From the NCBI GenBank assembly GCA_043381765.1, contig JBHJMP010000840.1, positions 1 through 50,437 of the forward strand: a stretch of 50,437 nt of DNA. The letters run 5' to 3'. The notes beneath the pieces are model-generated. The model was not told where the DNA came from and made no database searches. It worked only from the letters and a program-made list of their open reading frames with translations. The stretch comes from Collodictyon triciliatum (taxonomy: Eukaryota). Positions 3,705 to 45,187 of this stretch are shown here, piece by piece. Position 1 is the stretch's first letter. Each line of letters opens with the position of its first letter. The position numbers and the translations under genes are program-made.

Positions 3705-6700
3705 TTATGCTACGTTGCTGTTGCGTTCGATAATAGATTCCCATGACCTAATATTTTGCTCCATCCTTTCCGCACAATATTTGAGTTCTGGAAATATGTC
3801 AACAACCCTGTTCCACAAGGGACTGACGACATATTTGATGAATCCAATATTGAGGTTGGCTTTTGATATCTATGAATGATGGGGGAAATGAAGGCACGAG
3901 AGTGATATAAATAACATGTAATTATTTTTTTTCTATGTGTATTAGAATAATCATAAAGGATAGGAGAGCTGTTTGCCACATGAGATGAGAGAGGATAATG
4001 ATGGGGCGATATGCCCTCAATATACCTCATCTGATTTTTCCATAAATGTAGCTACAGGCAGAGACAATGCATGCTCTTGTTTGGCCTAAAGTTCAGAATG
4101 TGACGATAAAAGTATATGTGAAATACATATTTGCAGTAGTAACTTTTGATTTATGAGCTTACATTTCTTTTGTGTTCCTTTTCAAAATATATTATTATAA
4201 TCATTCATATCAAAGAACTGTATTATATATTCTCAACAGACTTGCTGGTTAAACTCCTCTAGTACTCGGGTAGCCCACGTGTAAGCACGATTTGTTGGTA
4301 GCACCGGATTGCACAAGTCAGAACTATGCAAAATGATGTTGACGAGGAATTGCCGATCTTCTTTCCTGTCTCTCTGGAATTTATTACTATGGACAGTTAG
4401 ATTGGTGGTAAGTTTGGAATGCTCCGCCATATCTGTGGCAAGTATTGCTGGAATGATTGTTTTCCTAAGCTCTAGGCGATCGGATGGTTCTAGATTGGAA
4501 AATATGTCTGTTTTCGTCTCGTTGATAATTCGAAATGTTAGGGATGAATGGTGATTCTCCAAAATAGATATATCGTTGTAGATCAAAGCAAGAGGTGATC
4601 CGCTGTTCATCAAGAATGCATTATTTGTACCCTAGCAATGCAGAACCAATATTTCAATGCCCATATGTATTCTAATCAAAAGCATTACAAATAAATCAAG
4701 CATGCCCGTGGCTCTGTTCTTTGTCAAAAAAAGAAGAAAAAAAGAAGAAAAAAAGAAGAAAAAAAGAAGAAAAAAAGAAGAAAAAAAGAAGAAAAAAGAA
4801 GAAAAAAGAAATAAAAAGGAAATAAAAAGGAAATAAAGATGAACCATCACGAATGGTTTGGCATGCGAAAGGTTAGGTTTTTTTTCTTGAAAATTTATGC
4901 GCACAAAATATTGCAGATGGATTATTTAATATGATTATTACTAGATTTTTTAATTAAAAATTAAAAACGTACAGGATGATCAACATCATGGCAAATCGTG
5001 GCCACCATTAAACCAAGAATATCCAGTGGGTTTAAGTACTGTGCAGCGTCTGTGCTGGTGATTATGATGTATGATGACTGAAAGACTGAAAATGCGTGCT
5101 GAAAATTATGGTAGGGATTATCCCGATAATGCGACCGGATAATTCGAAGAAATGCTCGGAGTAGCCCTTGGTCGATTTTAAATGTCGAGAGCAGATCAAG
5201 AGATTCAAATCCGGCTATAATCATATTGTACATGTCTTCATCAGATAGTTCAAAATGGTCCAAATTCCAGTCCTTAAGTCGTTCGATGTAGTTAACCGTC
5301 TCCAAAAGTCGAGAGGTCATTTGCCTTTGCATCTTTACTAGGTCAGGTCTTGGAGTTAATTCCGTTACAATAGCCTTGCGAGATGTGGAATACTCTCCAA
5401 GAAGGTCTTTAATGGTATTTACAGACGAGGAATCCGAACTGTGCATAGAAGAATGAAGTTATTTCTTTTCTTGAAGATAAACCCGTATGTAAATGTAGAG
5501 CACTTCTGGTAACACAAAACAAAACAAAACAAAACAAAACAAAACAAAACAATGCAAAACAAAACAATGCAAAACAAAACAAAACAAAACAAAACAAAAC
5601 AAAACAAAACAAAACAAAACAAAACAAAACAAAACAAAACAAAACAAAACAAAACAAAACAAAACAAAAGAAAGAGAAATGCGCATGTACGAGAAATTAT
5701 ATAACACCTGGCCATAATATTATGATACGCAGTTTCAAGTGATTGTCTTTGAATAACTGCGGCAGCTTCGGCTGTGAAGGTGAGCAGAAGCTGTTCATCT
5801 CCATCGGTAAAGACACCGTTGGCTTTGTTTAAGACCTGCATGAGATGAGAAACCCCCCAAAGTTCAATATTTTTGGTGGTTGCTTTACATCCATATAAAA
5901 AAGAAAAACTAAATTTAATTTATATCAATTAAATTAGAATAGTCAAAAACCTGAATGACAGCTATAGATCTTTTGTTATTGTCGAATATTGGAACACAAA
6001 GGATCGTTCTTGTTCGGAATCTATTTTACATAACATATCATCACAATAAATTATCCGTCGCAGATGTGTGCTGATATAGTATATATATATATATATATAA
6101 CATCATGTGCAATAGCCCGGTGATAATTGTAATAATTACAGACCCTGTCTTTATATCGAATGTTCGATCAAATCGAGGGTCTTCGTATGCATCCGGAATG
6201 TTAATTGTTTGGCCCGTTGCTGCCACAGTTCCTGAGCAAAATGAGACATAAAATAAATATTAAGGTGACGCGAAAATAGGAAAGTATGACCAGACAGTTT
6301 TACCCACTCAAGTTTATATTGAGAAGATTCTTTTTCTATGCTGCTTTTCTTCATTTTTTTGTATTCTTTTTAAGAAAGTAAAAGGAACTGCACAAGACTT
6401 GCGGCAACATGCATAGCTATGGTCAATGTAGTCAAGGTTACCAGCGATTCCAACTCCAATAGGTACACGAATAGTCGCATTGTCCTTGCTAACTTTAAGG
6501 AGCAACTGCTTGGCTATATTATCAACAAGAAAAAATGAAACGCGATCAACTTCCATGACATCATACGTTACCTACAGCAGATTTGAATACATGAGGTACT
6601 GATTGGCTAAATGTACTCACTAGATGATGGTGATGATGGTGATGATGGTGATGATGATGATGATGATGATAAAAAAAAAATAATAAAGATCCTCTTAAAT

Positions 6701-10334: not shown

Positions 10335-10413
10335 TCTTTTGCGAACTCAAGCTGTATGTTAAATCGATGTACAGCGGGTTAATACGACTAAATCAAAGCA
10401 AATGAAATCAAAT

Positions 10414-10572
10414 AAAAAGAAGAGAAAGAAAAAAAAAGAAAAAAAAGAGAAAGAAAAAAAAGAGAAAGGAAAAAAAGAGAAAGGAAAAAAAGAGAAAGAA
10501 AAAAAAAGAGAAAGAAAAAAAAGAGAAAGAAAAAAAAAGAGAAAGGAAAAAAAGAGAAAGAAAAAAAGAGAA

Positions 10573-10613
<41 letters not shown>
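10414..10613. repeat. Imperfect A/G-rich (T/C-rich on minus strand) simple repeat upstream of PDE
   Basis: About 200 nt composed almost entirely of A and G. Confidence 0.9.
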
Positions 10614-11157
10614 CTTCGTGCTAAACCAAAGAGTCAGTCCATTAGGCACACTCAAAGCAAACTTTCTTTTTCTGTTCTCCATCTTTTCCTAATTCTCCGT
10701 CTTCATTTGGCGGCAATCGCTGGATGGCCTTGCCAGTTGAACGCAGCCCGTAACGCACAGTGGATTGGCCATCCTGCCACTTGGCACACCCAACAAAGCG
10801 CTAATTGTTGTTATTTCTTCAATTCCAATTCAGAAAAACGAGAAAGGAAAAAAATTGCAAACAAAACTGGAATCTAAATCTAACGTATTTCCTTATGTGG
10901 GCTGCCAGAAACGGGTTGCAAATCAACGCCCTCTTTGTGACGCGTGTTGTGGGACGAGACGCTGGCAAGGAGCACAAATCCCTTAACCAATGCCTTCAAA
11001 CCGGCTTTGAAAATGCTGATTTCTTGTTTTTTTTTTTCAAAGAGAAAGCGCATCAAAAACGGCAACACATTTGTTTATTAAGTTCTTGTGTGTGGCTGCG
11101 TACGTGGTTTTGATAATGAATAGGAGTGGAAAGAAATGGAGGCAGCGTGCGAATGGA

Positions 11158-14100
11158 CTACGACGAAATCTTTCGACGGGCCTCGATAAGTGATGAGAAC
11201 CACGCATCGCGTTCAGCCTGTGGTTGTATCAAGACAACTTTGTTAATCAGGACCCGACCTGTACTCTCGTACTCTTTATTCAAATAACGATGATTGCATA
11301 NNNNNNNNNNNNNNNNNNNNNNNNNNNNNNNNNNNNNNNNNNNNNNNNNNNNNNNNNNNNNNNNNNNNNNNNNNNNNNNNNNNNNNNNNNNNNNNNNNNN
11401 NNNNNNNNNNNNNNNNNNNNNNNNNNNNNNNNNNNNNNNNNNNNNNNNNNNNNNNNNNNNNNNNNNNNNNNNNNNNNNNNNNNNNNNNNNNNNNNNNNNN
11501 NNNNNNNNNNNNNNNNNNNNNNNNNNNNNNNNNNNNNNNNNNNNNNNNNNNNNNNNNNNNNNNNNNNNNNNNNNNNNNNNNNNNNNNNNNNNNNNNNNNN
11601 NNNNNNNNNNNNNNNNNNNNNNNNNNNNNNNNNNNNNNNNNNNNNNNNNNNNNNNNNNNNNNNNNNNNNNNNNNNNNNNNNNNNNNNNNNNNNNNNNNNN
11701 NNNNNNNNATAATTCACTTGAAGAGACACGTATCCGCGTCGAAGAAGCGACCCGGGAAGAAGCTGGAGGTGGTGAGTTCATAATCAGGAAAGGAAAAGGA
11801 AAAGGAAAAGGAAAAGGAAAAGGAAAAGGAAAAGTAAATAAAAAAAAGTAATAAAAAGGGAACTTCATTGGGCAGCTGTGGTGGATTTGAATCTGCCAAC
11901 TGAAGGGCGTGTTGTAGGTCTTGGCAATCCTGAGGCGTGTTAGGAAAAACCTCATACCTAAATAATGAGTGTTTAGTTGCGGATGAACAAGGAGTCGCTG
12001 TGGCTCTGCGGATATGTCTATCAAGAGAGGGGTAGCGAAGGGGGTATAAATCACCTGTGGAAATCTTTGAAAAATATGCGTATGCAAGTTGTTCCTTCGG
12101 TCTTGAATTCAAAAATGTCATGCAACCCCCAATACTTCCGAACAGAGCCATCCAAGACGTTATTGAGCCGCTATATTTCAAAAGTTTGAATAAACAAAAC
12201 AAAAACGATGAAGTGAAAAGAAGGATTGATTGAATGAATCTAAATTAAAGCACCTTGTTTTTGAAATCGACTTGAATGATGCGTGTTTGAGAAACTGTGG
12301 TGATATGGAATGAGATAATGAATCAAAACCAACAAAATACAACACGCATCAAAATTGCTGTTCATAATAGGATTCATGGCTTTATAGTACAAGTAAACTA
12401 ACGTCCTCGTTTGTTCAGTTTCACCACTGAGACATTTACAGAATTCATGCAAACGACCATGGATGGATTAATTGCAATCGAGGCCCCGTCTGATGCAGCT
12501 TCGTTCAAGGCTGCCTCCCATCCGTCTCTCTCAGGCTTAAGGTTTGGAATAAGAATAAATAAATAGATAAATAAATAAATAGAATTACATTGATAATAAT
12601 CGCTTATGAAAACACCTCAACTATCATGATTTATTTTTGTAAAAAAAAAGTTAGCGAATCGATTAAGTTACGCAGAAAACGGATTGAGTTCAAAGGAAAC
12701 AGTTAATATCACAAGTGCTTACCCGTGACCTGAATCTCAATGAGTATTCGCGTGATTCGTCCTTTAATTCCAATGACAAATCTTCTCCTTGAGTAACTTT
12801 CATCGCCGGGCATAGAGCCAATATGTTGACTGGGTATACATCCTAGGAGTGATTCATTAATGAGCTAATACATATGCAAGACAATATGTGATGTAGACAA
12901 ACAATATCTTGTTACATGCATTTATAAGAATGTTACAAAACATCAATATTATTTATTTGGTTTCTTATGCAATTAATCAAAATGGATGCTTCTTATGTGA
13001 ACCTGCGCTGTTTTGAAAATAAAGAGTTTTTTTCGGTATAGTAAAAGCCAACGCAAAGACCACGCACGGTTTCCAAGCTTCTCGCAGCTTCCACGTTTGA
13101 CACAGTCTCCGATTTTGAACTGATATTCAAACTTGGTCAGATTATTTTCCAAATAAAAAAACTGCGAAGCTTGTAATGAGCTTTTCTTCTTGATATTTTA
13201 GATGACCTGAGGGGGGATGGAGCGAGGATTCAAGTCAATTATATTCTTGAATGCAAAGAACATGTCAGCTGCATCTTTTTCCGAGGAAAGCTTGATTTTG
13301 TACCTGCGTGTTTCATTATATTATTAGAATTAACATATATGTAAATGGGTTAAAATTTAAGTAGAGACATACAAATCAGGTCCTCTGAATCGAATGTCCA
13401 CGATAAATGAGTTGGATGCATCCTTCACACAATCCTCGATATCGTGGAAGGTGAAGACCTTGTGAATATCACCTAATGTTATTGATATCAGTCAATATCG
13501 CAACACAAGAACAACTATCTCGAATATCGAGATACATGGCATTTTTGAATCATGCAGGGATGTATCTAGCTTTACCTTTCTTGACAACATTTACTTTCTG
13601 TATATTGTAGTCAACTTGGATGATTCTTTTTTTGAAGTTTCCTTTTTGCTGATTTTAAATTATGAAGTATTTAGTAAGAATATGTGTCGCACATCGACGT
13701 TTCAGTGAATACATTAATACATATGTAATGATTGAGTTTATTAACCTTGTCTTCCTTTTTGCAATCAAAGTGGAGACAACTTGTCGCCGCCAAGTGAGAC
13801 GGGAGAGGAGCACGAGATTCGCTATCTGCGATATCGAAGTTTTTTTTAAAAAAAAAACCCCCCGTAAAGTAGGGTTTCTTTAAAGAGCGAAGAGAAATAA
13901 AAATAAAGTAAAAACAATCAAGTGGTACATTTGAATGACGTAAAAAAAAAAAATTAAATAGACATTTGAATCGCTTACCAGTAGATGAGATATGGTCTTT
14001 GGAGGCTGCGATAGCCTTAGAGATATCTTCGTACCATACGCGTTTGTGCTCCTCTGAAGCCAGGCTATAGACAATGATAATGATAATAGTGAAAGAGGCC

Positions 14101-17100
14101 ATGAAATTATCAAAATACTAAAATTAAATTAATGATTATAAAAAATGGTGAGTAATAAAGTGATGTTTATATCATCGAAATTTAATCTCAATGAAAAGAA
14201 CTTATTAGAGCTTCTTAAATGTTGATATTTACCGAATAAAACATGTTGATTTCGGATTTTTTATTTGTATGGTTAGTGCTCGGTTATCTAATTATATTGT
14301 GTAAATTAAGTAATTGAAGAAGGAATCGATTTATTATTATTGATTGTAAATGGAAGTTGGCATAATTACGCGAGGCATCTTGGTTGTCTATAATTTCTGT
14401 TTCACTCAAGTAAAGCAGCTTGTGGAAAAAGTAAAGAGGCTTGATTTTGTTTGGAACGGGTGTGGCGAATCTGAGCATTTTATGTTATGAATCAGTTCAT
14501 TTTTCTTCCATGATAAACATGAATGCGCAGTAGTGTGATGAGAATATAAAATGTAAAATTATGGTTCCTTACAGCATCGCATCGTTGAACAGAAATAAAT
14601 GTCTTTTTTTCGCAACATGGCCACTATCGTACTCAATTTGGCCCTCTCGAATATATCTCCTCATGGGGTCGAATACCTTTTCCTGTGTCAAGACTTTGAG
14701 CTTTTTTTTTTTTCATAGTGGTAAGTTTTTTTGCTTCAATTTTACTGACCTTCAATCGTCCAACACACATCTTCTGGATATTTGCCAATTTTTCAAGGTT
14801 TTCTTGTAGTCGCCCCATTTCAGCACGCCCCATTCTCGACGCAGAGGGGAAATACTCTTTCATGTACTAATCAAAATTTATCGGGCTATTATCCGCTTTC
14901 CGTCATTTACCATCATGAAATCACTTCGATATAGGAGAAGGGTTACCTTTTCATCCACAACTGGGCCTTCCATGAGGCTAAGCTAAAATTGTTCGTTCAA
15001 TTACATATGAGATAGGAGCAAAGGTGACTATGATAGTGACTTTTCATATGTTTGCTTCTTTTTCTTTTCCATTTGTTTTTGATTTCATCGGTTTACATCA
15101 TCAAGGAACATGGCAATTCACATGTAACAAAAGCTTACATCTGGGCCTCCAGCTACATCATCTCCAGTCTTTACTCCGTTCCGTGCTTCTTGTCCAGAAA
15201 AGAATTTCAGATAAGCATTGATGAACGCACTCGCCTGCATTTTAGAAGTAAAAATATATCAATATCATTCCACATAAAAAAGTATACTGCCAGAATAAAT
15301 AAAGCTATTGAGATATAAGATAATAAAATAAAAAGGAGGGAAGAAACTCATCACCTCCACATCCAGAGAATAAAGAACAGAAAGTTTGATTGAGAGGCGA
15401 AAGCCTTCAGCCACGAGAGTCGCTCTATTTACATCGTATAGGGCCTAAATCATAATTGTGATGATTACTATGTATCAAAACGTGAGCTCCCAAGGACACA
15501 TTGCGACTAACCTGTGTCTTTCCTGTGTTTGCCGATTGGCTTAAGGTTCCGAGGAATGAGTACCAGGAATCCTAATATAAAACGAGTTTAGTTGCTCGAG
15601 TAAAATCAGTGTTGACAAATGAGTGAGTTCAAATGGCGATGCACATATTCAATATTTTATTGGGTTTGATTTGAATAAAAAAAATGCATCAAAACTCTAG
15701 CTGAATCATATGTTAATTTCCCTAGAATACAAACCTTAAACATCAAACGTGGTATATCTGTGTATGATGCCAATAGAAACAGTCTAGGTGCTTCATGAAA
15801 ATTTCTTGAGCCCAATATGCCCTATGCAAGGCAGAACACAGATAAATATGCGTAATTATCTGGGTTTTTTTTTCTCAAATATAAGGCATACCAAACTGCG
15901 GGTCAGAATCCGATCACCCTCCCACTCAAATAACATTGCTTTCTTTTTTGATGGACTCAATCCTTCATGTTGTAAAGTAATGTATAATTTCATTAAAAGC
16001 AAACTAAATTACAAAATCCCATAAAGAATGTAAAACTGTAACTATATGAAATATATTGATCAGTGTGCTATTTGAGAACCTGAAGGAATTTTAGGTTCTT
16101 CTGTTTCCTTCATTTTGATTTCATTTGTCACAATCTCTTTATAAAGGCTTTCCAAAAAAGAAGACGACAGGTCTTTTCCACCATCAATCCCTCGATTATT
16201 ACGAATAAACTATTATTTGGAGTAAAATTGAGTTATATTAAAACAAGCGTACTTAAAGTATGATGAGTATATGAGAGAAAATTCATGATCTTATGAAAAT
16301 TAGAATAAATGAGCTCAAGTTTGAACCTCTTCAAGACTCATCTTCTTTTTAACCATAGGGTTATGGGCATCTGTGTTGAGCATGATAACAGAGTATGATA
16401 AAACATACGCCGTTTCTATGTACAATTAAAATATCACTACTTGATGTTACAGACTATCTATCTATCATCATGATTTTTTAATTAAATGACAATCAGATAC
16501 TAAATTCATAGGAATACATTCTGACTAAGTTAACATAAAGCGTAGAATAAGAGGCAAAGGCGATGATATATACTTTATAATGAGAGTATTATATAAAGAG
16601 ATTACGAACCAGCAGTACTGAATACGGTGGGATTATGTTTGCAGTATCGCTCGGTAAAAATCTCTAGCATGCGAGAAATTTTTTGGGCCTCTCCAGGAAG
16701 GCGAAATCCAGAGAGATAATATCTAAAAAATATATGTATATCAAAAAACTTTTCCAGAACCTTTCTTTTTTTCTTTTTTTTTTTTTAGATTTTAGATTTG
16801 TAAGGTACGACAGAAAGAAAATATACATAATTTACCTGAGTGCACCGTCAAATGTCATATTCATAAATGAGAGACCCTCGACATACTCTCGCAGAACGCT
16901 TATATTGAAATCGTCTCTAACGAAATTTGATATTTAAAATTCACCACTTTTTCATCTCTTGAATTATTAGAGTAGTGTCGCTTGATTTGATTTTATTGTT
17001 TTGTTTTTTTTTTGTTTTGAGCTTTGACTTGCTTTCATATAAATTGACGAATCCTTAATTAAAGGCATACCCTTCTCCAAGATATTCTCCAACTTTCGAT

Positions 17101-20100
17101 TTGTCCAAAAGATGAGTGCCACGCAGAAATGTCGCAATCGACACTGCCGTATTCTCTATCATTTTATTCTCGATAAGGTGTGCAATGCCCTATTATTCGT
17201 CGGTTATGTCAAAAAGAAAAGAAAGGGTCTTTGCACAAAATATCAATAGCCTGAAATACTTAAAGTATAATATATGTACTGCAGGGAGATATTAGTGAAT
17301 GGCACCTTGTTTGGCTTCATATTAAAATTTTCCAGGCCTTTTCGAAAAGTAGATTTTCTTTTTTGCATGTCTTCAAGAAACTGTGCCAGTCACTAGTTAA
17401 CACGACATTTCTGGTAGACATGGAACAGGATGAAAGGAAACCGCAAATACTTCAAATGTGTGCATAGAATTTTAAAAACCTGAATACACTGCTCACGTCC
17501 TTGGGGCAGACTAGAATAATTTTCAATCAAGTCTGAAGGGAAGTGGTCAGGCGATTCATAGCCAATTTTGCACCAACGCACCATGCTTAAAAGAACTATA
17601 AACCGAAAGCCGGTTACTAATAGGAACATAATGCTCGAAATGATATTAGTATCGACTTTAGCATGTATGCATAAGATAAGGAAAATTACTGTCAATAAGG
17701 GCCTGAAGTCCGAATGTTTCAAAGGTATTCTCTGAATCAGGATCATCCATTTTAGACAGAGAGCCGAGTGAAACTTTGGTCAACAAATCAACCAATCTAT
17801 CGTACAGACAACCAGTTAAGATTCCTTTTTTCGTTCATAATCAGAATACTCCCTTCCAAAAAAATGAGGGCAAGAATAGTTTTAGAAGTTATGAAACATA
17901 TATTTATAATTTTCACATGTAATAATAAAATAGTTCTAAACTAAATTTTGTTCTTTTTCGAATTATATTTATAATAAAGGAGTTTGCCTGAGGAAAATGT
18001 TTTCTTCTTTGACGTCGTTGTCATAGTTGAGAAAAAGTTCGACGATGATGAGTTCGTTCTAATTTTAAAAGAATTAGATCAATTTCGTACGAGAATGATG
18101 CTAAATACAGCCCATATACTTGGGGGAAAAATATCATCTAAAGGCCGTGTAAAATGAAAGAAACCAAACAAAAGGCAAAACGGATTAATGACCCATCGTG
18201 AAGGATTTTACCTTGCATAATCTGTTCAGGACTTGAATCAATTTAATTTTGTGTCCGTCAGGTGTGTATTGACTCTCGAGAAGGCGAAGGTATATCTCTG
18301 AGAAAAATACTCCAATCTCCGTCTGAACAAAGATGGGTTACGGATGTTTTCAGAGTTGGGAGGACAGATCACTCGCTTGAATAGTTTGATCAAATTATTG
18401 CAAAAAGGACTTACCTTTAGATGAATTCTAAACTTTTCAATAAGCATGTACATGAAGTTGAGAGAATAATGAAAGAAGGTTGGATTCAAAGACACACTGG
18501 TAACCACTAGCGCATGGCAAAGATGTTCCTATCGAACGAATGGATGTGTCCATCAAAAAAAAATAGATAAAATAATCCAGCATCATGATATGTATAATAA
18601 AAAGGAAAGTGGATCAGGAGATACCTTAACAACCCGTATGAAAGATGAATTCTTTGATATTACATCATCTCGGCGTTCTATAATTGACAACAATGCCTCG
18701 TAGGCCAAGATTTTCCCTTGTTCATCTACGGACTCATCTTCGCTACTCCATGGTTTTTCGGCAGAACTGCGTTTTGGAATTGATTGACATCAATAAAATT
18801 TCTAACTATTCCGATAGTGTTGATGTGGGCAACAACACGTCTAACATTTCGGGATAAATGCTTTGATGGTCATCAATCACATAATTGAAAGAGAACAAAA
18901 TGAAAAGCGAACTACTCTTGATTTGGTCGGCGCAAGAGGATTCGACAGAAGGATATCATCATATTGCATGCATTTCTGCCATCAAATTTGGTATTTAGTT
19001 TAATGAAGTGAAAAATTATGATGGCGTTTTCGCACGTGGGAGTAGTTGCTGGAAAGAGATATAGTGATTGGAATGTACGATATATATTGTGATTACCTGA
19101 GTGCTGGAGAGAGTGAAGACACATGGGCCTCATTCGAAACCGAAAAAACATCCCTATATTGTTGGTATGTGGAGGTCTTTGTGGTCTTGCCCTGCCATAT
19201 GAATGAATAAGTAATTGTTCGTTTGAGATTAAATGGCTTCCTTTGCATGCATATGATTACCTCGCTTTTAGAAACAGCTTCTGAAATCATTTTATGGACC
19301 ATTCTTTCACAGAATATATCTATTGTGACATCAGCCTCCTCATCAGCCAGTTCTGTAACATCGCCATCAATTGGACTCAGCACCGATTCATCCGTTTCTC
19401 TTTCTACATCATAGTTGATTTATACGGGTAATAGTCATTTAATTCTATTGTATAATTTAAAGTAATATGAAAAAGGCAATTATGCGTAATCATTCCAAGG
19501 AATGAGTTTATTAAGGTATGATATTATACCATTTTTATAGGAGAAAACTGTCTCTGAATCATCACGAGGACTTGTATTACTGATAACATCGCTGATTCGC
19601 ACGCTCTTTCGAGAGAAAAAGCCATCGTCAAGTCGGTCAAGCACAGACTGCACAATCTGCATGAGGGTGGTTCGTGCAACTTGCAAAAGAGCCGGGGATT
19701 TTTGTGAGGTGAGTCTGACGGAGTAGCATGTGTCCATGATCCTCATGAGGGAATGGTCGTTGATAGTGCATGTCCGAGATGTTACCAGGGAGCCGAGGAA
19801 CTATATGGTGATTGATAGGTGAATAATGAGACAGACAGAATTGATCTTATTGGTAGATTACAACATCGATCAGGCTCCTTGATGCTATTGTTGATACAAA
19901 GGAGCAGTGATTTACAAGCTTTTCATAACAATACCTGCACAAGTTCAGACAATAGATCCTCCGAGGGGTCTCGTCGACAGCTGCAGATTAAATCGATTGT
20001 TGCATCGAGTGATAGACAATATCCTTCATAAGAATCTTGAAGAACCAAAGAGGGAGACGAGCTGCTTCGACTTGACCCTGTAGCAACAATTCATGTTAGG

Positions 20101-20196
20101 AAAATGCCTTTGTGAATCTCTGTCATACGTATACCAATTCAGGAAATGAAGAAATACGCAGCTCTAGTTAAAATCATCATGTTAACACTAATTCTA

Positions 20197-20231
<35 letters not shown>

Positions 20232-21382
20232 AGTGATATTGATAATCACAGTAAAAGTGATAGTAATAGTAATAGTGATAGTGATAGTGATGATAGTGAT
20301 AGTGATAGTGAAGGTGATAGTGATAACAATAGTAATAGTAATAGTGATAGTGATAGTGATAGTGATAGTGATAGTGATAGTGATAGTGATAGTGATAGTG
20401 ATAGTGATAGTGATAGTGATAGTGATAGTGATAGTGATAGTGATAGTGATAGTGATAGTGATAGTGATAGTGATAGTGACATCAATAGTAAAAGTGATAA
20501 TGATAGTGATAGTGAAGGTGATTTTTCACATACCAGTCTTTGCCTTGGGACTAGGACGGAAAGCAAGGTCGTTTGTGAACGATAGAACCTCATTTTCGAC
20601 TAGTTTCTATATACATATTTATTTTAGAAAACTTAAGTGCAGTATATTTCAGAAACTAGAAAGGCGCTTCAAAACGCCATTAATTTACAGGATAACTCAA
20701 ACGATCAATTGAACAAAGAAAAAATAAACCACCGAACAAAAATAAGTAAATTCAATAGAAATGAACAAATCAATCAGATAGAGAAGATCACGGTGAACCT
20801 GTCCACAACGGAGGACTTTGCCTAAAAGGCGATCCTTTCTTGCTGTCATCGCAGATAGAAAAGCATTCAGGTATGAATGCGGTGGGCTGTGGATTTAAAG
20901 CCAAAACAGACTTTAAATAAACAGGTAGATAAATGAAAGAAAACAAGAAAGGTTGTGTAGTCATATATCTCCAAGGAAACGAAAAAGAGAGGGTAGAATG
21001 GACAAAAAAAAAAGTCATACATGCTCCCGTCCAGCTTTAAGTCACGAAGCTCATCTATGTTGAAATTCTTAGTGTGAATACCCAAGTGTTTGAAAAGAAG
21101 AAAACTGCAGAATCTTCGAATAGTTATTTTTCTTTCAACAAGCCAACACGATGAATAACCGAAGAAATAAGAGAGGAGGTTTAGAAGAAAGTATTATCTC
21201 TAAGTGTCTATCGAACAACGCTTTGTCTCAGCGAAAGTCAAACCTAAGAGAGCCTTCAAATGCAAGAGAGTTGTTTGGTCTTTGCTCTGCGAAGAAATCG
21301 AGCGCATCAAATCCTCAACAGACTTGATCGACGCAAATATGTTTTCTTGCCGCTCTCGCAGCCCCAGCGTCGCCAGTTCCAT
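11158..21382 (-). CDS. Large Sec7-domain Arf guanine-nucleotide exchange factor (BIG/GBF-like DCB-HUS-Sec7) with C-terminal tandem PH/PH-like domains, many exons; spans an assembly gap
   Basis: DCB-like segments: VLRCGQ|KLVE and [19 protein letters not shown] region: [17 protein letters not shown] and [15 protein letters not shown]. Sec7 domain: [54 protein letters not shown] (catalytic Glu at about 16690), [32 protein letters not shown]. These are followed by an HDS1-like segment and PH-type motifs ([59 protein letters not shown]). Stop at 11158. Confidence 0.88.
11301..11708. other. Assembly gap (N run) within the Sec7 gene
   Basis: N bases. Confidence 0.99.
11787..11833. repeat. (GGAAAA)n microsatellite, intronic
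   Basis: Tandem hexamer. Confidence 0.9.
20197..20522. repeat. (GAT)n grading into (GTGATA)n microsatellite in a Sec7 intron
   Basis: Tandem tri- and hexanucleotide arrays with degenerate flanks. Confidence 0.95.
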
Positions 21383-22167
21383 CCTGTTTTCTTGTCCCTC
21401 ACGGGTCTTTGTTTGGGCGCTTAGAGAGCGGGAACAACGAGACACGAAAGGAGTGGTCTTTTAGTCTGGTGTGTTTTCGAAGGAGAGAAAAAAAAAAAAG
21501 AAATTGAAGAGAAACAAAGAAAAATGAAAAAGTGATGAAGGACAAAGATAAATGAAAAAGTGACAAAAAGATAAAGGAAAATGATAAAAGATGAAGGAGA
21601 AGTAGAAAAAAGAAAAAAATGAGAAAGGGATCGGCCGACAACCACGTCCAGCTATTTGTGTGTATCTCGCTCACAAGCCTGTTTTTCGGGTGCGACTCGC
21701 AAATGACATCGCAACAGACGCAGCTTGGGTGATCATCTGATCGAAAAACAAAGGCACAAGTTCTGTGAAAAAATCCGCATCTGGACTTCTCGTATAGAAT
21801 GGATTCACCGTATTTTGTACCAAACTTGCTCATTATACCGACAAAGCCACTACTTTATATTCTCTACATCAATTTGATGAGCTATTCATATAGACCTATG
21901 TATTATAAGCTTTAAAATAATTTAATATAACGTACGATAATATTTTCCAGAATTATACTTGACATAATTCCGCCTTTGGCTGGCAAAGTAACGCCGCCTT
22001 TCCAGCATCCAATCTGCACAAAACCAAGCCCACCACATTGCTGTCATTCTTAGCCAATAATGAAACACTCACGTGAATACGCTTCATGGCAGGAGAGAAG
22101 CAAACACTCAGAGGCGCTCTTTGTTTTCACAAGGAACCTACAAGTCTTCCCGGATAAACGTCAGCGA

Positions 22168-23875
22168 ATGCCCCAGCCTAAGCGTTGTGTCGCGATTGGG
22201 GCCGCGATTCTTGTGATAGGCACGATATTAGCCAGCCAACTGATCCAAGGACAAAGCCTGAGGAATCCGCGGACAAAAGATGGAATGGAGGTTTTCAACA
22301 ACTCTTTTGTTGGGGGATTTCACCGGATGGCAAAAGCAAAGGGTGGCAAGCACAATGCTGTCGCAAAGGCCGATCCATGTCTCCTTATCGGAATTACATA
22401 CAGCAACCAAATGGTTAGGCAGACACTCCGAGAAACCTGGCTGCAATGGACCGACGGGTTGTGTATTGAGTACCGATTTATTGTCGATTCTAGCCAACCA
22501 GGCTCTACTGATTCTGAAAATAAGGTATCTCAGTTTTTCTTCATCATCATTTAAGGTTACTACAAGGTATGGTAATTTTTTTTATTTTAGCCAGATGTAG
22601 TGCAAATAGGTTGGCTAAAGTTCTCATTTTTTTTAATCGGTTGCACATTTTTTCATACATACTTATGCATCGATATAGCCATTTTGTTGCTCTATTTATG
22701 GTCAACCTATGTAGATTGAATCTCAGAAAAGAAAAGAGGAGCTTGCAAATGAAAATCAGACACACAAAGATCTCTTTGTTATTCATGGTAAGCTGACATA
22801 AATTATTTATCGTTATTGTTGTAACTATCACTTGTAAAAAGAAAAGAGTAGCAGAAATGAATTGATTGAGATTAAGTTGGTTTTTGGACTCTGGAGATAG
22901 GCATCAAAGGATTTTTGTTCTTTCCCTGTTGTATTATTGCTAATTTATCTTTATCTTTATTGTTATTGTTATTCAAGGCTCAAGCCGCAAGAAATGGAGC
23001 TCCTCAAAGCTACTCATGCGTTTTTTAGTATATGCTGAAGTGACATTTAAATATGGTTCGTCAATCCTTGGTTGTGTCTACTGCCATTCAAAATACTGCA
23101 ATTCCTTCATTTTTATCTAATATTGGGAATGGTGCTCAGACTTTAGTTAATTCTGACATAATATCATCGAATGGTATAGACTTTTTCGCCGTGGTGAATG
23201 CGCACTCATTTGTTTGCCTGAAGCGAGTGATGAACGAAATGAGGCAGATATCTGAGAATCTTTACATAAATGGGTTGGTATCGTGCACATCCCCTACTAT
23301 GGCTTCGTATGAGGACGATTTTATGTATTTCAGCAGAGATATAGTCCAAATGCTCCTCCTGAGAAACGAGATTTTAGGCGTTTTTCCCAAATGTCTCTTT
23401 GCCCAGTCACTATCGATATGGCTTTCTGGAACTCTTGCAAAGTTCCATCATGATAATCGAATTATTCCAATAAAGAAACTGGCAGACAAGGTTTGTTGCG
23501 TATATTTAGTTGTTTATATATAATCTTTTCACAGCACTATCTACATGATTGGTCAAAGTCCCTCTGGTCAAGTCTTTAACATACAACTACTCACAATTGC
23601 TTCAATTGTATGACAAAAAATTATTGTCAAATAATAATAATGAATAATAATAGCAATAAAAATAAAACACGTAGGCCCAAGAATATCAAAAAGATATATG
23701 CAAATCAGGATTGTCCCTGACAAGACTTCAAGCGCCCCAGATACGGGATATATGGGCTTACGAAACAACTACTCCATCCAATCAAATCGACAGTATTTCA
23801 TACAAACCCAAAGATTCCATTTTGCACTGTCCTTATCCTCTCAGCTTTGCTGCAAAAAACTGTATCTCTGGTTGA
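22168..23875 (+). CDS. Type II membrane glycosyltransferase family 31 (beta-1,3-galactosyltransferase/Fringe-like) fold protein; DxD motif absent
   Basis: N-terminal signal-anchor CVAIGAAILVIGTILA, then LLIGI..., RQTLRETW, YRFIVD, LANENQTHKDL, FKY|DFFAVVNAHSFVCL, YFSRDIV and LSIWL. Approximate exons 22168-22524, 22715-22787, 22978-23055, 23180-23490, 23676-23875. The last exon and stop are tentative. Confidence 0.7.
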
Positions 23876-24149
23876 ACAGGAAGATGTATTCATTCGGCAA
23901 GGAGCCTGGGTGTGTTTTGTGTTCGCTGTGGGCGGCACAATGAGCCCAGACTACTGCCCTCGGTGTGGATAAAACGGAAACTATATTCCAGAAAAATGCT
24001 TGTCTCTTTACATATAATTAACCTAGATAAGGAAAAATAGTTTGACAGACTATCGCCCGAACGGATTTGCTCTGATTCTGATCAAACTAACCTACTTAGC
24101 GTTTGGCTGTGTTGCGTTGGAGATTCACACGAAGCAGGCGTATTTTATT

Positions 24150-24500
<351 letters not shown>

Positions 24501-24660
24501 ATCTTATTTATTCACCATGAAGTAACTGATCACACATAACTCTTTCAAATAAAAAACCGCCGTGCAGATAATGAACCCCAAAAGCTACACACACACCCAT
24601 TTCTCGTGCATTCATGTAAGTCCTTTGTAGCAAACACCAGGGCAGACCAAAGGATCTTTT

Positions 24661-27600
24661 ATGCTGCACAATTCAATCACAACATCCACAAGCACGCTGA
24701 ACGAAGAGACCGACTCTGTCCGAAGCAACAGAGACATCGTCACGGGCTCTCAGACGGGAAACAAACAGGCAGGTTCACTTTCGCGTCAGATACTCGACCG
24801 TAATGCACGCACAAGCCGGACAGCCATGAATCAGGCCATAAACTCAGCCGCAGCTGCACGTGAGGGTCTCTTTATCCTGTCCCTCTTGATGGACGTCACC
24901 ATGGACGAGCTCCGCAAGGTCGAAAAAATTGACATCAGCGGCAAACGGCTCATCCGCGTCCCCAACGGATTGTCGCTGCTTCCACAGGTTTATCGCTTGC
25001 ATGTGGACGACAATCACCTGAAAACCGTCCCGACTGGCGAGATTCGCGCATTGTCTCTGCTGACCCGGCTTGGATGCACACAGAACCAACTCACAGGGCT
25101 GCCCAACGACCTATTTGCACACTGCCCTCCCATCCGCAAGCTCTATCTCAACAACAATCGCCTCAGCGGCATCCCACAGACAGTCTCTATTTTGACTGCG
25201 ATGACGGTTTTGTCTCTCCATCACAATCACATATCGGTCTTCCCTTCTTGTCTACTTTCCGGTGTCCTTAATACCTTGGCTGATCTGAACCTATACCACA
25301 ATCGACTCAGCGCTGTACCCGCAGGGTTGTCATTGCTCACTGGACTCACGTACCTCTCTCTGGCGCATAATTTATTGTCGTGTTTCCCAGTCGATGTGTT
25401 ACCGTCGCTGCGCCGTTTGCAGCAGCTCATCCTCAGAAACAACAAGCTTACTGGGCTCCCGCCTGATATAGGACGGTGTTCCGCCATCTCTGTTCTCCTT
25501 CTGGAAGATAATCAGTTGTCTATACTGCCTGATTCCATCGGAGATCTAATCTCCCTTCGAGAACTATCTATAGGTCGCAGGCAAAGTGGGAACAAAATCA
25601 CAAGCTTGCCATTCTCACTCGGACAGCTGTCGAGGCTGGAAACACTATGTTGTGACTCAAACCCAATCATGTCGCCCCCGCCGAATCTCCTTCTTCAAGG
25701 CCCTGAGCCTGTCCTGTCCTACCTTAGAATTGCAAAAGCCCACGGCACTGACTGGTGGCGACGCGGCCGTGTCGTAATTGTTGGGCAACCATCTACAGGA
25801 AAATCATCACTTATACAAGCTCTTCAGTTACATGGCCACGCATTCACTCAATCTCATAGCTCTATGGGCAATATATCCCCGCGTCCCACTACTCCAGGCT
25901 CTCAAAGCTTGGGTTTCGCAAGGAACTTCTCTAAATCCGAACCCAGTTTACAGCTCCCTCCAGTCTCACAAATGTTGCACTCGCAAAACTCACATCCTAT
26001 TATGGGGCCCAAAAAATCTCTTCCGCCAACACCCGTGGCGAACGCAAATGATATCCAAGTGATACATAGTGATGTCCTGCTTCAATTGGCATGCGTTGAT
26101 TTGGACTTGGACAATGAATACCGCTGGACATTGCCCTACTTTTTGACCCAAATGTCTGTTTTTATCATAACTTTTGACGTGACCAAACCAATTTCACAGT
26201 CTGATTTAGTGGAATGGCTTTCCTTTTTGTCAACAATGGTATCCTGTCCTCGAGTGATTCTTGTAGGGACATTCATCGATTTGATCCCTGATTCAGTACT
26301 ATTTCCTGCTCTAGAACCATCTACACCAGAAACACCGAATTCATCAAGCATCCCTTCTCTCAGCAAATCCAATATAGATGTCAACATTGAAAATTGCTTC
26401 ACATTCAAGCTCGACCAAGAAATACGGAACTTGGTTGCACCATTTGAAGGCAAAGTCCACCTCGATGGGCCAATCTACGTGTCTTCTCAGACAAATTCAA
26501 GCCTATCAGAACTTCAAATATGCATCGCATCGGCTGTTTTGCAAATGGGGTCCTCACACTGTCAAGTTCCACACCCTTACCTAAGAGTTGCCAATCTAGT
26601 CTTGCAGGTACAAAAGTTTCGACCAATCCCCATTTGCGACGTGAAAGAGATAGCAGATGAAATAACTCTGGATGATGAATTCAATACTTCTGCTGTCTTG
26701 TTCGAAAGTATCTTGCCATTCCTTCATGACGTGGGGTTGGTCATTTGGTCCCCAGCGCAAACGCTAAGACACAAAGTTATTTGCAAGCCTGAGTATCTCA
26801 TGCAAGTAGTAACGAAAGGGCTTACGTCTCTCCAGAGGAATCACAACGCCTGCGGTTCTTATACTAGAGACCAGCTAGTTCAGGTATTTGATGTCGATGG
26901 CTCTGGAAACTCAAGCTATATTATCGAATTTCTGGTGCAACATAACCTGGCTTTCTTTTCCGCATCATCAGAGGAATATATAATTCCATGCCTGTTACCA
27001 GAAGGGCTACCCCCAAAGCACATATGGCCCCTTCTCCTAACATCATCTGCGGCGTACTATTCTTTCACTACATGTTTGATTCGATGCCGATATTTACCTC
27101 CGGGCCTATTTGATTTGCTAAATGCATATTTCAACTCTGCGATGTATGTGGACACGAAAAAGTCACACAGTGTTTATTTCGGTCGCTCCCACTCCATATT
27201 TTGCTTAACAGACCGAAAATCCTCAGCGCCTAAGGCCAATTACCAAGTTCTTATTCAGCACATCAGCGCCGACCGAGGTATTCTGGTGCAAGTGCGTTCT
27301 TTGACGGAAGCTTTAAAGTCATGGACCGGGATTCAGGATGTTTTACAAGATATCCGCAGAATTGCAGAGGTGTTTCCTGGGCTCGAATACGATGAAGACC
27401 TTGTTTGCCCGTACTGCATATCGCAATACGGTTCGGCTCATATAGGCAACTTGGTCCCCATCTGGAGTTTGCACGAACTCGATGAAAATGTTTCGTGTGG
27501 AATACACAGCACACCGTGGAAACAATGGAGGTCATCTAATAAGCTCCAATTGCTAAAACAAGCTCAGGCGTCCTCGTTTCGGTTACCAAAGGCCCCATCT

Positions 27601-28747
27601 CTCTTTTGGATTGAACAAGGAGGTGACGAGAAAGAATGCACTGTCCGTCTTGTTTGTGATTGTCCAGGCTCACCCCACTCGATTGATGGAGTATGTTACC
27701 CGGTCAAAGACATCGGGTCGTTCATCATGGAAAATCAGGCCTTACTCATGACAAACTTTGCCTATTTGAAGCTAATATCAGATAGGCTCGAAATCAGAAC
27801 ACAAATACCCGGAGCTACGGAAGAAAGGCAAAAATCGGCTTCGGAGATAGAGAGGGATATCCACGCCATTCAATTGATGCTGTCGGAAAGGAGAAAAATG
27901 CAGACCGAGATATATATCGAAGACCAATCGTGGGAAAACTATCTGACTGAATCTGATCCGAAGCTGAACTGGCAAGCGAAAGTCACTCCTGTTGTTCTGT
28001 CCAACGGGCAGCTGCGGTGGCTGTGTGGGACTTGCTCTCTTAAATACCATAATACGCAGGCTTCGTCATCTACTCGAGGCTCGTCCAGAGACACAATTCT
28101 GAGTGGAAATCTGCTGAAACTGGGTGGAATCGGTAAGGTCAAGTCAAAGTGGCAGACTCGCTACTGTGTCATAGATGAGAAATCTGCAAGGCTGATTTAT
28201 TTCAAGTCGGAAGGAGACCGAAAACCTGCAGGCGAAATCGACCTTAAAGCCATAAAGGTTTTTATCTTCCTTTTTCTTCTCCTGAATCGCTATTCATCTC
28301 TCTTTATCGGATTGTAATGTCAATATTTTCCCCCTTCGTTTAATTCAAAGGATATTGTAATACCGATATGATTTTTTCTTTTTCTTTTTCTTTTTCTTTT
28401 TCTTTTTCTTTTTCTTTTTCCTAATAATAATTAAGTAAAATAATTAAATCGTGCTCCAGTATATCAGCGAGTCAGAGTCACCTGACAACACCCCAGGATT
28501 TGTCTTCTGCATCCCATGCGCCTCAAAAGCATATTACTTCAAGGTTTTGCTCTATATCATCCTTTTCAATTTCATCATTTATTTTCAAATAGTTTCATAG
28601 ACTCTTTATCATCTGGTATCGACTGCCTGGAGTTCCTCCTCATAATATACGACTAGCTCACAAATCCTTACTCTTCAGTCGGACACACAAGCCTCAAGAA
28701 ATCAATGGGTCGGCAGCATTCGCCGGGTCATGGAAGCAAATTCGTAG
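24661..28747 (+). CDS. Roco-family protein: LRR - Roc GTPase - COR - PH, no kinase domain
   Basis: The 1218-aa ORF has about ten LxxLxLxxNxL repeats, the NPIMSPP..L.QG...VLSYL linker, P-loop VVIVGQPSTGKSSL, YFLT..SVFIITFD, VILVGTFID, and COR motifs LPFLHDVGLV and YIIPCLLP. The PH domain begins ILSGNLLKLGG..KWQTRYCV and is completed by two small exons (approx. 28460-28543 and 28679-28747, ending RNQWVGSIRRVMEANS*). Confidence 0.88.
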
Positions 28748-38440: not shown

Positions 38441-38607
38441 TATTGTTTAGAGTAGAGTATTTATCTTGAAGGACTGGTTCTCTTTTCCACTGACACAACA
38501 GGCTTTTGTTCCTTCAGAATGTAACTATTTTAATTATATTTTTAGTCGGTCTTTTGCGATAAAGTGTCTGAAGAATGAGCTAGAATGGAAGCAATATCAT
38601 CGCTATT

Positions 38608-39266
38608 GAGAAAAAGAGAAAAAGGCCAAAGAGAAAAGAGAAAAAGGCCAAAGAGAAAAGAGAAAAGAGAAAAAGAGAAAAAGAGAAAAAGAGAAAAAGA
38701 GAAAAAGAGAAAAAGAGAAAAAGAGAAAAAGAGAAAAAGAGAAAAAGAGAAAAAGNNNNNNNNNNNNNNNNNNNNNNNNNNNNNNNNNNNNNNNNNNNNN
38801 NNNNNNNNNNNNNNNNNNNNNNNNNNNNNNNNNNNNNNNNNNNNNNNNNNNNNNNNNNNNNNNNNNNNNNNNNNNNNNNNNNNNNNNNNNNNNNNNNNNN
38901 NNNNNNNNNNNNNNNNNNNNNNNNNNNNNNNNNNNNNNNNNNNNNNNNNNNNNNNNNNNNNNNNNNNNNNNNNNNNNNNNNNNNNNNNNNNNNNNNNNNN
39001 NNNNNNNNNNNNNNNNNNNNNNNNNNNNNNNNNNNNNNNNNNNNNNNNNNNNNNNNNNNNNNNNNNNNNNNNNNNNNNNNNNNNNNNNNNNNNNAAAAAG
39101 AGAAAAAGAGAAAAAGAGAAAAAGAGAAAAAGAGAAAAAGAGAAAAAGAGAAAAAGAGAAAAAGAGAAAAAGAGAAAAAGAGAAAAAGAGAAAAAGAGAG
39201 AGAAAAAACAAAAGACAAAAGAAGAAAAGAGAAAGAGGGAAAAAGAAAAGAAAAAAGGAAGAAAAA
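38608..39266. repeat. (GAGAAAAA)n array interrupted by an assembly gap (38756-39094)
   Basis: The same octamer lies on both sides of the N run. Confidence 0.93.
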
Positions 39267-39445
39267 GGCCTTTTATTTTGAAGGTAGTAGTTTGTTCTTA
39301 TGAAGACATAAACGTGTAACTGATTAACCAACTTCAAGGGATTAAGAAAAAGAGTGCGACAACTCTGGGCCTGAAACAAACCAAATAAAGCTGAAGCGTT
39401 TCGTTGTGAATCACTTAGAATCTAAACTATTATGATCGCAGACTT

Positions 39446-39515: not shown

Positions 39516-39778
39516 GCGTGGTATTTTTTTTTTCCTTTCTCTTTCTCGCTGCCATTTCTCAAGCGGGGCAGGCGAACCCTTTTTCTGCATAGCCCAAAGT
39601 CCTCCTATAAACCACAGTTTCTTTCTATACAGACGCCAACACTCGATTCCCTTGTTGATCTTTAGCACTTACCACAAAGCTGCGTCCGCGTTTGCCTTTG
39701 TGGTTATATAAAATAACCATCACCTGAACAAAAGTTAGCAACAAGAGCAAACTTTAGAAGCACTTCTCCCTCCTCTCT

Positions 39779-40005
39779 CTTTCTTTTCTTTTCTTTTCTT
39801 TTCTTTTCTTTTCTTTTCTTTTCTTTTCTTTTCTTTTCTTTTCTTTTCTTTTCTTTTCTTTTCTTTTCTTTTCTTTTCTTTTCTTTTCTTTTTCTTTTTC
39901 TTTTTCTTTTTCTTTTTCTTTTTCTTTTTCTTTTTCTTTTTCTTTTTCTTTTTCTTTTTCTTTTTCTTTTTCTTTTCTTTTCTTTTCTTTTCTTTTCTTC
40001 TTTCT
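39779..40005. repeat. (TTTTC)n/(TTTTTC)n microsatellite just upstream of the Myb-like gene
   Basis: Compound pentamer/hexamer array. Confidence 0.95.
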
Positions 40006-44980: not shown

Positions 44981-45187
44981 CTATATGATTAGATAAGATT
45001 GTTGTGGGTCGAACATCAAGAAGAGAAGACGAACGAAAACATGACCTTGGTGTAGTAATTAGTCGTTGACTGAAAAAAAACCTTGATAATGTGGGGTCCA
45101 GAACTCGGTCTCTAGAAAATAGAAGTGAGATTAAAAAAAAAAAGGATTTATTGATGTTTGCAATGTCAAGATCTTAAGCCGCAACCA

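Follow-up and report, generated by a model that had tools for sequence, protein, structure and literature searches.

A large Arf-GEF gene of Collodictyon triciliatum with a BIG-type front end and a predicted array of five PH-fold modules

The window analysed here is the whole stretch of 50,437 nucleotides (nt) of Collodictyon triciliatum (assembly GCA_043381765.1, contig JBHJMP010000840.1, positions 1 to 50,437 of the forward strand); it is eukaryotic, AT-rich and dense in introns, and contains five runs of N. Its minus strand carries, at 11158..21382, a single intact gene, with 44 exons or more, for a large guanine nucleotide exchange factor of Arf GTPases (Arf-GEF) of about 1,480-1,500 residues. 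The order of its parts is DCB, HUS, Sec7, an HDS1-like segment, one helix of DH type, PH1 and two copies of a unit in which an F3/PTB-like PH fold precedes a classical PH domain. The limits proposed in the initial annotation of this DNA, made from the letters alone, proved exact, since the ATG lies at 21380-21382 and the stop codon at 11158-11160. The features of the gene are given below.

11158..21382, minus strand: whole coding region, 43 exons from the ATG to 11718, then a gap of N, then the terminal exon with the stop codon
19630..21319, minus strand: DCB domain, exons 1-6, recognised by Pfam DCB
18011..19098, minus strand: HUS domain, four Pfam Sec7-like_HUS pieces
16117..17359, minus strand: Sec7 catalytic domain, exons 16-21, five Pfam Sec7 pieces
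15145..15957, minus strand: HDS1-like helical segment of about 130 residues, exons 22-26
14750..14982, minus strand: linker, exons 27-28, including a conserved helix at 14750-14827
13983..14682, minus strand: PH1, exons 29-32, of DH-adjacent type, seven strands and a helix in the model
13210..13802, minus strand: PH-like 2, exons 33-36, predicted PH superfold of FERM-F3/PTB-like shape
12482..13209, minus strand: PH3, exons 37-39, classical PH domain
11867..12466, minus strand: PH-like 4, exons 39-42, apparent paralogue of PH-like 2
11158..11866, minus strand: PH5, apparent paralogue of PH3, first exon (11718-11762) and last exon present, middle in the N run
17797..17987, minus strand: sole GC-AG intron, after exon 13, the HUS-box exon
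20078..20533, minus strand: intron 4, the longest (456 nt), packed with a trinucleotide microsatellite, repeat at 20341-20479

The 43 exons joined upstream of the gap form a frame of 4242 nt without a stop, and the 42 introns between them are all GT-AG apart from the one listed above. Exon length ranges from 34 to 271 nt (median 96) and intron length from 67 to 456 nt (median 116.5); GC content is 0.431 in exons and 0.303 in introns. The model was built in two ways. From Sec7 to PH5 the exons were first chained by eye, in three frames and with canonical splice sites, before any homologue was known, and most of them were recovered in this homologue-free manner, always in frame, up to the N run. 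The N-terminal half was completed with the guidance of P0001, the 1503-residue open reading frame of a Diphylleia rotans Trinity transcript in EukProt, which is the sole member of its sequence cluster; exons 13 and 14 are required for colinearity with this protein over the HUS box. Self-trained exon finders split the gene too much or too little and were kept for coordinates only. The assembly gap (408 N at 11301-11708) conceals approximately what corresponds to residues 1417-1460 of P0001, the middle of PH5. This module stands where the initial annotation had located it, with its middle missing from the assembly; PH3 likewise was placed correctly, with its middle exon now corrected to 12723-12842. 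A Pfam scan of the raw window, performed on the 123 minus-strand stop-to-stop pieces of at least 28 residues from 10800-22500, returned one DCB, four HUS and five Sec7 pieces and one piece with PH families, the remaining 12 matching pieces giving weak hits to unrelated families only (E 0.0077 or worse, E being the expect value). Each of the PH domains further downstream is spread over three or four exons, which is why their exons gave no hit when taken one at a time.

P0001 was the lone match when the 90-residue DCB exon was compared by HMMER with 1.84 billion representatives (E 3.6e-27, 62% identity). The product of the pre-gap model is colinear with it and identical at 941 of 1404 positions (67.0%), and tblastn of P0001 against the window gave colinear minus-strand matches from 21361 to 11170, which correspond to residues 8-1496. 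Its Pfam families are DCB (residues 22-213), HUS (330-488), Sec7 (578-760), SOS1_NGEF_PH (969-1065) and PH in three stretches. With the PH array of P0001 (residues 900-1503) as query, three proteins were found among 5658 candidates, namely P0001 itself and two further Trinity open reading frames of EukProt: P0002 (1473 residues, 43% identity; DCB, weak, then HUS, Sec7, SOS1_NGEF_PH and PH) and P0003 (940 residues, 32% identity, 5′-truncated and starting within Sec7; Sec7, SOS1_NGEF_PH, sub-threshold PH_29 and PH). Sec7 and the PH array are thus encoded in a single reading frame in all three independent transcript frames, and the continuation of a Sec7 front end into PH modules, which the initial annotation had put forward, holds both there and in the exon chain of the window. 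The gene is the orthologue of P0001, and P0002 and P0003 are more distant relatives that have the PH array in common. Further searches added no relatives: of 8000 candidates scored with the PH array of P0003, none but P0003 was retrieved, and the reach of this search was limited, since it missed P0001 and P0002; a metagenome scan with P0001 gave 51 pattern matches, none of which was confirmed; in the ESM Atlas the array obtained a top score of 0.86, below the lead level of 0.9, from generic PH/RhoGEF fragments only; and a protein search with the DCB exon at longer lengths scored none of 100 candidates. The label "lineage-specific", proposed earlier for this architecture, depends on these searches, whose reach was limited, and is therefore tentative.

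Identity to P0001 varies along the protein. It amounts to 59% in DCB, 68% in HUS, 80% in Sec7, 58% in the HDS1-like segment, 85% in the helix that precedes PH1, 63% in PH1, 80% in PH-like 2, 77% in PH3 and 70% in PH-like 4. With 63-80% in the PH modules as against 59% in DCB and 80% in Sec7, the tail is therefore constrained no less than the regulatory front.

In the front end, DCB was recognised on exon 6 (19483-19800, E 6.3e-7; E 4.5e-13 in P0001), Sec7-like_HUS best at 18188-18337 (E 5.5e-6; E 5.5e-29 in P0001) and Sec7 best at 16605-16784 (E 2.1e-12; E 1.1e-71 in P0001). The HUS-box consensus is N-Y-D-C-D, and the variant NYDND is present at 18014-18028; the glutamate-finger motif FRLPGE is intact at 16689-16706. 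All three domains had been named in the initial annotation, together with the NYDND variant. At four positions which we take to be determinants of brefeldin sensitivity, the Sec7 domain of the window carries Y, S, D and M, and this may serve as a lead only. Downstream of Sec7 a three-sequence profile (A1) gave an unbroken alignment from the Sec7 domain to residue 992 of the fungal Sec7 chain 8ucq_B (residues 649-992), and thus the HDS1-like segment is covered by the match; in the model of P0003 this region is helical, with a predicted local distance difference test score (pLDDT) of just 30-45. It had been thought that only the start of HDS1 is retained: an HDS1-like segment is indeed there, and with five exons it is longer than a mere start. 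No further Sec7-family Pfam model was found in P0001 (E<=1) or in P0002 and P0003 (E<=0.1), and the stop codon follows directly after PH5 both in the window and in P0001. HDS2, HDS3 and HDS4 are absent and the HDS1-like segment is kept, so the proposal that a PH array stands in place of the HDS arm applies to HDS2-4 and fails for HDS1.

The class of the front end was approached through solved structures. The best match of P0001 was the fungal full-length Sec7 8ucq_B (E 6.7e-71), followed by the Sec7 domains of BIG1, BIG2 and yeast Sec7, and Gea1/2 reached about half the score. With the A1 profile 8ucq_B obtained 353 bits and Gea2 (7uro) 131 bits, and over the Sec7 domain alone BIG1 obtained 248.8 bits and Gea1/2 134.9-145.6 bits; the DCB-HUS part of P0001 matched Sec7 5has (E 5e-13) and the DCB of BIG1 (E 1.4e-5). 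On this comparison of bit scores, which is not a phylogeny, the front end is of BIG/Sec7 type rather than of GBF type.

The PH tail opens with the linker helix, which resembles the last helix of the DH domain of FARP/FGD proteins and corresponds to residues 317-341 of the P0003 model. Taken together with PH1 it aligned with FARP1 (4h6y, E 2.5e-6 by single sequence and 4.2e-17 by profile), FARP2 (4gzu, E 1.5e-5 and 2e-15) and FGD5 (E 9.9e-5 by single sequence), and exon 29 alone gave E 0.084 with FGD5 (3mpx). A complete DH domain is absent: in the alignment to FARP (residues 197-325) the segment like the last helix, of about 25 residues, is all that matches, and no RhoGEF family occurs in the Pfam lists of P0001 (E<=1), P0002 and P0003. 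PH1 itself was matched by SOS1_NGEF_PH in P0001, P0002 and P0003 (E 2.7e-10, 2e-9 and 4.8e-12) and weakly by IQ_SEC7_PH (E 0.0059, 0.004 and 0.00055), and its piece at 14572-14712 of the raw window by RHG20_PH (E 8e-4) and PH_19 (E 0.063); its earlier description as a DH-associated PH domain is borne out by the SOS1_NGEF_PH matches and by the alignment over the DH-PH junction. PH-like 2 was matched in P0003 by PH_29 below threshold (E 1.4e-5, 25.1 bits with a cut-off of 27 bits), and among solved structures VIA-align paired it with the 4.1R FERM domain 3qij (Z 12.2, root mean square deviation 1.6, 86 residues) and the F3 lobe of IDOL 6qlz (Z 11.8). PH3 holds the top stretch of Pfam PH in P0001 (residues 1208-1286) and by VIA-align has its nearest folds in TAPP1 (1eaz, Z 15.2, root mean square deviation 1.8, 94 residues aligned), the PH domain of ARAP3 with inositol tetrakisphosphate (IP4; 7yis, Z 15.0) and Akt (Z 14.0). 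Four basic residues, K120, R121, K126 and R135, are invariant in the first two strands of PH3 and the loop that joins them; together with the fold matches to lipid-bound PH domains they may be taken as leads for phosphoinositide binding.

In the AlphaFold2 model of P0003 the array consists of five modules, each with seven strands and a C-terminal helix as assigned by DSSP, most 10-residue blocks having a pLDDT of 63-88. A model of the unit of PH-like 2 and PH3 reached a pLDDT of 87.4 and a predicted template modelling score of 0.81, and Foldseek placed the DH-PH-PH structures of FARP1/2 and the tandem PH domains of centaurin-alpha1 first among its matches (E about 5e-10). According to these models all five modules have the PH superfold, a seven-stranded sandwich closed by a C-terminal helix. 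They stand at the five places where the initial annotation had set them, and where it had foreseen HDS or ARM repeats as a possible outcome of modelling, sandwiches that match solved PH domains were obtained instead. Its wording for modules 2 and 4, as merely PH-like, was right as to location and too cautious as to fold, for they are predicted to be true PH superfolds of FERM-F3/PTB-like shape and paralogues of each other. A profile of PH-like 4 matched PH-like 2 in all four proteins (domain E 8.4e-10 to 2.2e-23, calculated on a database of these four sequences), with the reverse comparison likewise positive in four of four. The PH5 profile matched PH3 in all four, and the reverse agrees except for PH5 of the window, which is lost in the gap. 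No internal repeats were seen in a blastp self-comparison, whereas the profiles did show them. At the level of sequence profiles this points to the tandem duplication of a two-module unit, an F3-like PH fold followed by a classical PH domain.

The surroundings of the gene are as follows. Just upstream of its start and on the opposite strand, open frames of 159-166 residues without a Pfam match lie at 22054-23523 (plus strand), which may be a divergently transcribed neighbour. The plus strand at 24631-28317 contains an uninterrupted frame of 1228 residues, unusual among intron-rich surroundings, for a ROCO-type protein, as judged from its Pfam matches, which comprise LRR repeats, COR-A, weak Roc/Ras and COR-B and, at the end, the first part of a PH domain. 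Two exon pieces at 4233-5458 (minus strand) belong to a class I 3′5′-cyclic nucleotide phosphodiesterase (PDEase_I, E 1e-39 and 1.7e-15), a choline/carnitine O-acyltransferase gene at 42627-44988 (minus strand; E 4.1e-70 and 4.2e-26) is split by the N run 43281-43743, and 47173-47601 (plus strand, E 8.7e-32) contains one exon for a phosphate transporter of the PHO4/PiT family. Long purine/pyrimidine and trinucleotide microsatellites occupy 10360-10690, 20142-20600, 24100-24520, 38540-39300 and 39740-40000; several of them adjoin N runs, a hint that the gaps in the assembly stem from repeats. In a search of sequencing runs no RNA run was found to carry the region of the Arf-GEF gene. Two runs of uncertain kind, from one 2025 study and labelled as different organisms, contained 0.17 and 0.09 of the words sampled from 11720-21400, as might be seen if they covered just the exons or came from a close relative.

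How does this gene compare with the Arf-GEFs already described? It resembles BIG1, BIG2 and Sec7p in the succession of DCB, a variant of the HUS box, Sec7 with its glutamate finger, and an HDS1-like segment, but it lacks HDS2-4 and has five PH-fold modules after HDS1, in about 1,500 residues as compared with the 1,937 of the fungal Sec7 chain 8ucq_B. With the cytohesin, BRAG/IQSEC and EFA6 classes and the protist ARCC and TBS classes (PMC6727740) it has in common a PH domain C-terminal to Sec7, and BRAG2 Sec7-PH is found among the fold matches of the array. Those classes, however, are devoid of DCB, HUS and HDS1 and have a single PH domain directly after Sec7, whereas here PH1 starts at residue 961, about 200 residues past the end of Sec7 (760), and four more modules follow. 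With FARP1/FARP2 and FGD5 it shares the alignment of the last DH helix and first PH domain, and their tandem PH structures are the top fold matches, but it is without a DH domain and its catalytic domain is Sec7, so that the substrate class is Arf and not Rho. In a survey of Arf-GEFs in 77 genomes, the domain architecture of BIG and GBF1 is described as conserved, DCB, HUS and HDS are stated to be found nowhere else, and plasticity is reported solely in small, cytohesin-derived, PH-bearing GEFs (PMC6727740). The main text and one supplement of that survey do not mention Collodictyon, Diphylleia, Mantamonas or Rigifila (CRuMs). In a full-text search of the Arf-GEF literature no DCB-HUS-Sec7-PH protein was found described, in agreement with the suspicion in the initial annotation that the architecture was undescribed. 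The hybrid architecture, here in a relative of Diphylleia, is real and conserved.

It is probable that the locus holds one intact gene for a PH-tailed Arf-GEF of BIG type which acts and arose in the following way. The Sec7 domain, with its glutamate finger intact, is predicted to exchange GDP for GTP on an Arf1-class GTPase, and DCB-HUS-HDS1 would retain the helical backbone by which the GEF domain is held in position. A preprint on fungal Sec7 states that there HDS2 provides autoinhibition and occludes the GEF domain, HDS4 mediates dimerisation and a loop that follows HDS1 (the H-loop) bears membrane-binding helices (bioRxiv 10.1101/2023.11.22.568272). The PH array starts exactly where such post-HDS1 parts would follow and is therefore expected to supply membrane recruitment. 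It would be expected to do so by reading phosphoinositides and/or GTPases, with several weak sites engaged jointly as in coincidence detection, and it may also take over autoinhibition, by analogy with the PH region of cytohesins. As to origin, a BIG-type gene would have gained the 3′ part of a FARP/FGD-like RhoGEF, comprising the last DH helix and the PH domain, and the two-module unit would next have been duplicated in tandem; both events presumably took place before the lineages of P0001-P0003 diverged.

Several points weigh against this account. The exon joins are predicted from genomic DNA of Collodictyon, with an orthologue as guide; within the Sec7-PH5 part the boundaries of exons 22, 26, 27, 29 and 37 were set on P0001, as was the N-terminal half, and this slightly favours the identity figure to P0001. 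The assembly lacks part of PH5, the AlphaFold2 models are those of P0003 and not of the window protein, their alignments comprise three sequences, the repeat E-values come from a database of four sequences, and a single-sequence comparison shows only a weak similarity to HDS1 (3.5 bits). The binding of lipids and of GTPases, the Arf specificity and the autoinhibition are predictions from sequence and models.

What the array binds is the point at which a different reading survives best. It could chiefly bind proteins, either Arf, Arl, Rab or Rho-family GTPases or cargo tails, and not phosphoinositides, so that the enzyme would be a relay in a GTPase cascade. PH-like 2 and PH-like 4 resemble the peptide-binding F3/PTB lobes of FERM domains, and the fold matches include the Arf-binding domain of ARHGAP21 with Arf1 (2j59, VIA-align Z 12.8), the Ral-binding PH domain of Exo84 and the PH domain of Grp1 with Arf6 (4kax). 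The nearest folds of PH3, on the other hand, are those of lipid-binding PH domains, and it keeps its invariant basic residues in strands 1 and 2 and the loop between; the two roles are, moreover, not mutually exclusive. We regard a mainly protein-binding array as a genuine possibility, though somewhat doubtful.

A second question is whether this enzyme stands beside the BIG proteins or in their place. It is conceivable, and can be put forward only tentatively, that CRuMs possess a third class of large Arf-GEF, in which a FARP/FGD-like cassette, grown to five PH-fold modules, replaced HDS2-4. Alternatively there would be no extra class, the gene being the only BIG orthologue of the lineage in a remodelled form, and all Arf activation at the trans-Golgi would proceed through a PH-tailed enzyme. 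Among solved structures the Sec7 domain scores no lower with BIG1, BIG2 and yeast Sec7 than with any other GEF, and the DCB-exon search of 1.84 billion representatives gave P0001 alone; this search, however, employed a query of 90 residues that missed even P0002 and therefore says little, and in the 77-genome survey BIG is missing from just a few taxa (PMC6727740). A lone, remodelled BIG seems unlikely, although by a modest measure.

That a single gene is present at all is far less in question. Two adjacent genes, one for a short DCB-HUS-Sec7 GEF and one for a multi-PH protein, might be joined only by read-through or by chimeric transcripts, as the exon chain of Collodictyon is read from genomic DNA and Trinity is able to fuse neighbouring genes. 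Yet the junction exons 26-29 are in frame, with introns of 156, 80 and 67 nt and no stop, the linker is among the best-conserved parts of the protein, the identical join occurs in three different transcript frames, and PH1 needs the preceding helix that the linker exons encode, all of which makes the two-gene reading very improbable. Equally remote is a decaying pseudogene copy: the assembly gap does interrupt the gene, but its 43 exons are free of stops, identity to the expressed orthologue peaks in the functional domains and the GC content of exons and introns differs. As for divergent HDS2-4 helical repeats mistaken for PH domains, this may practically be dismissed, since nothing counts in its favour and the tail shows all-beta sandwiches with helix caps, Pfam PH families and structural matches to PH domains with Z up to 15.2.

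Read as one PH-tailed Arf-GEF of BIG type, the gene breaks the division between BIG/GBF1 and the PH-bearing GEFs, as it combines a BIG-type front with a PH array that is conserved and apparently duplicated, in a deep-branching group outside the sampling of the 77-genome survey. It offers a natural experiment on the role of HDS2-4 in membrane binding, autoinhibition and dimerisation, and on the extent to which PH domains can replace them. If the third-class reading were true, the helical tail of large GEFs would be swappable for a coincidence-detecting PH array, and phosphoinositide or GTPase signals would stand directly upstream of Arf activation at the Golgi and endosomes.

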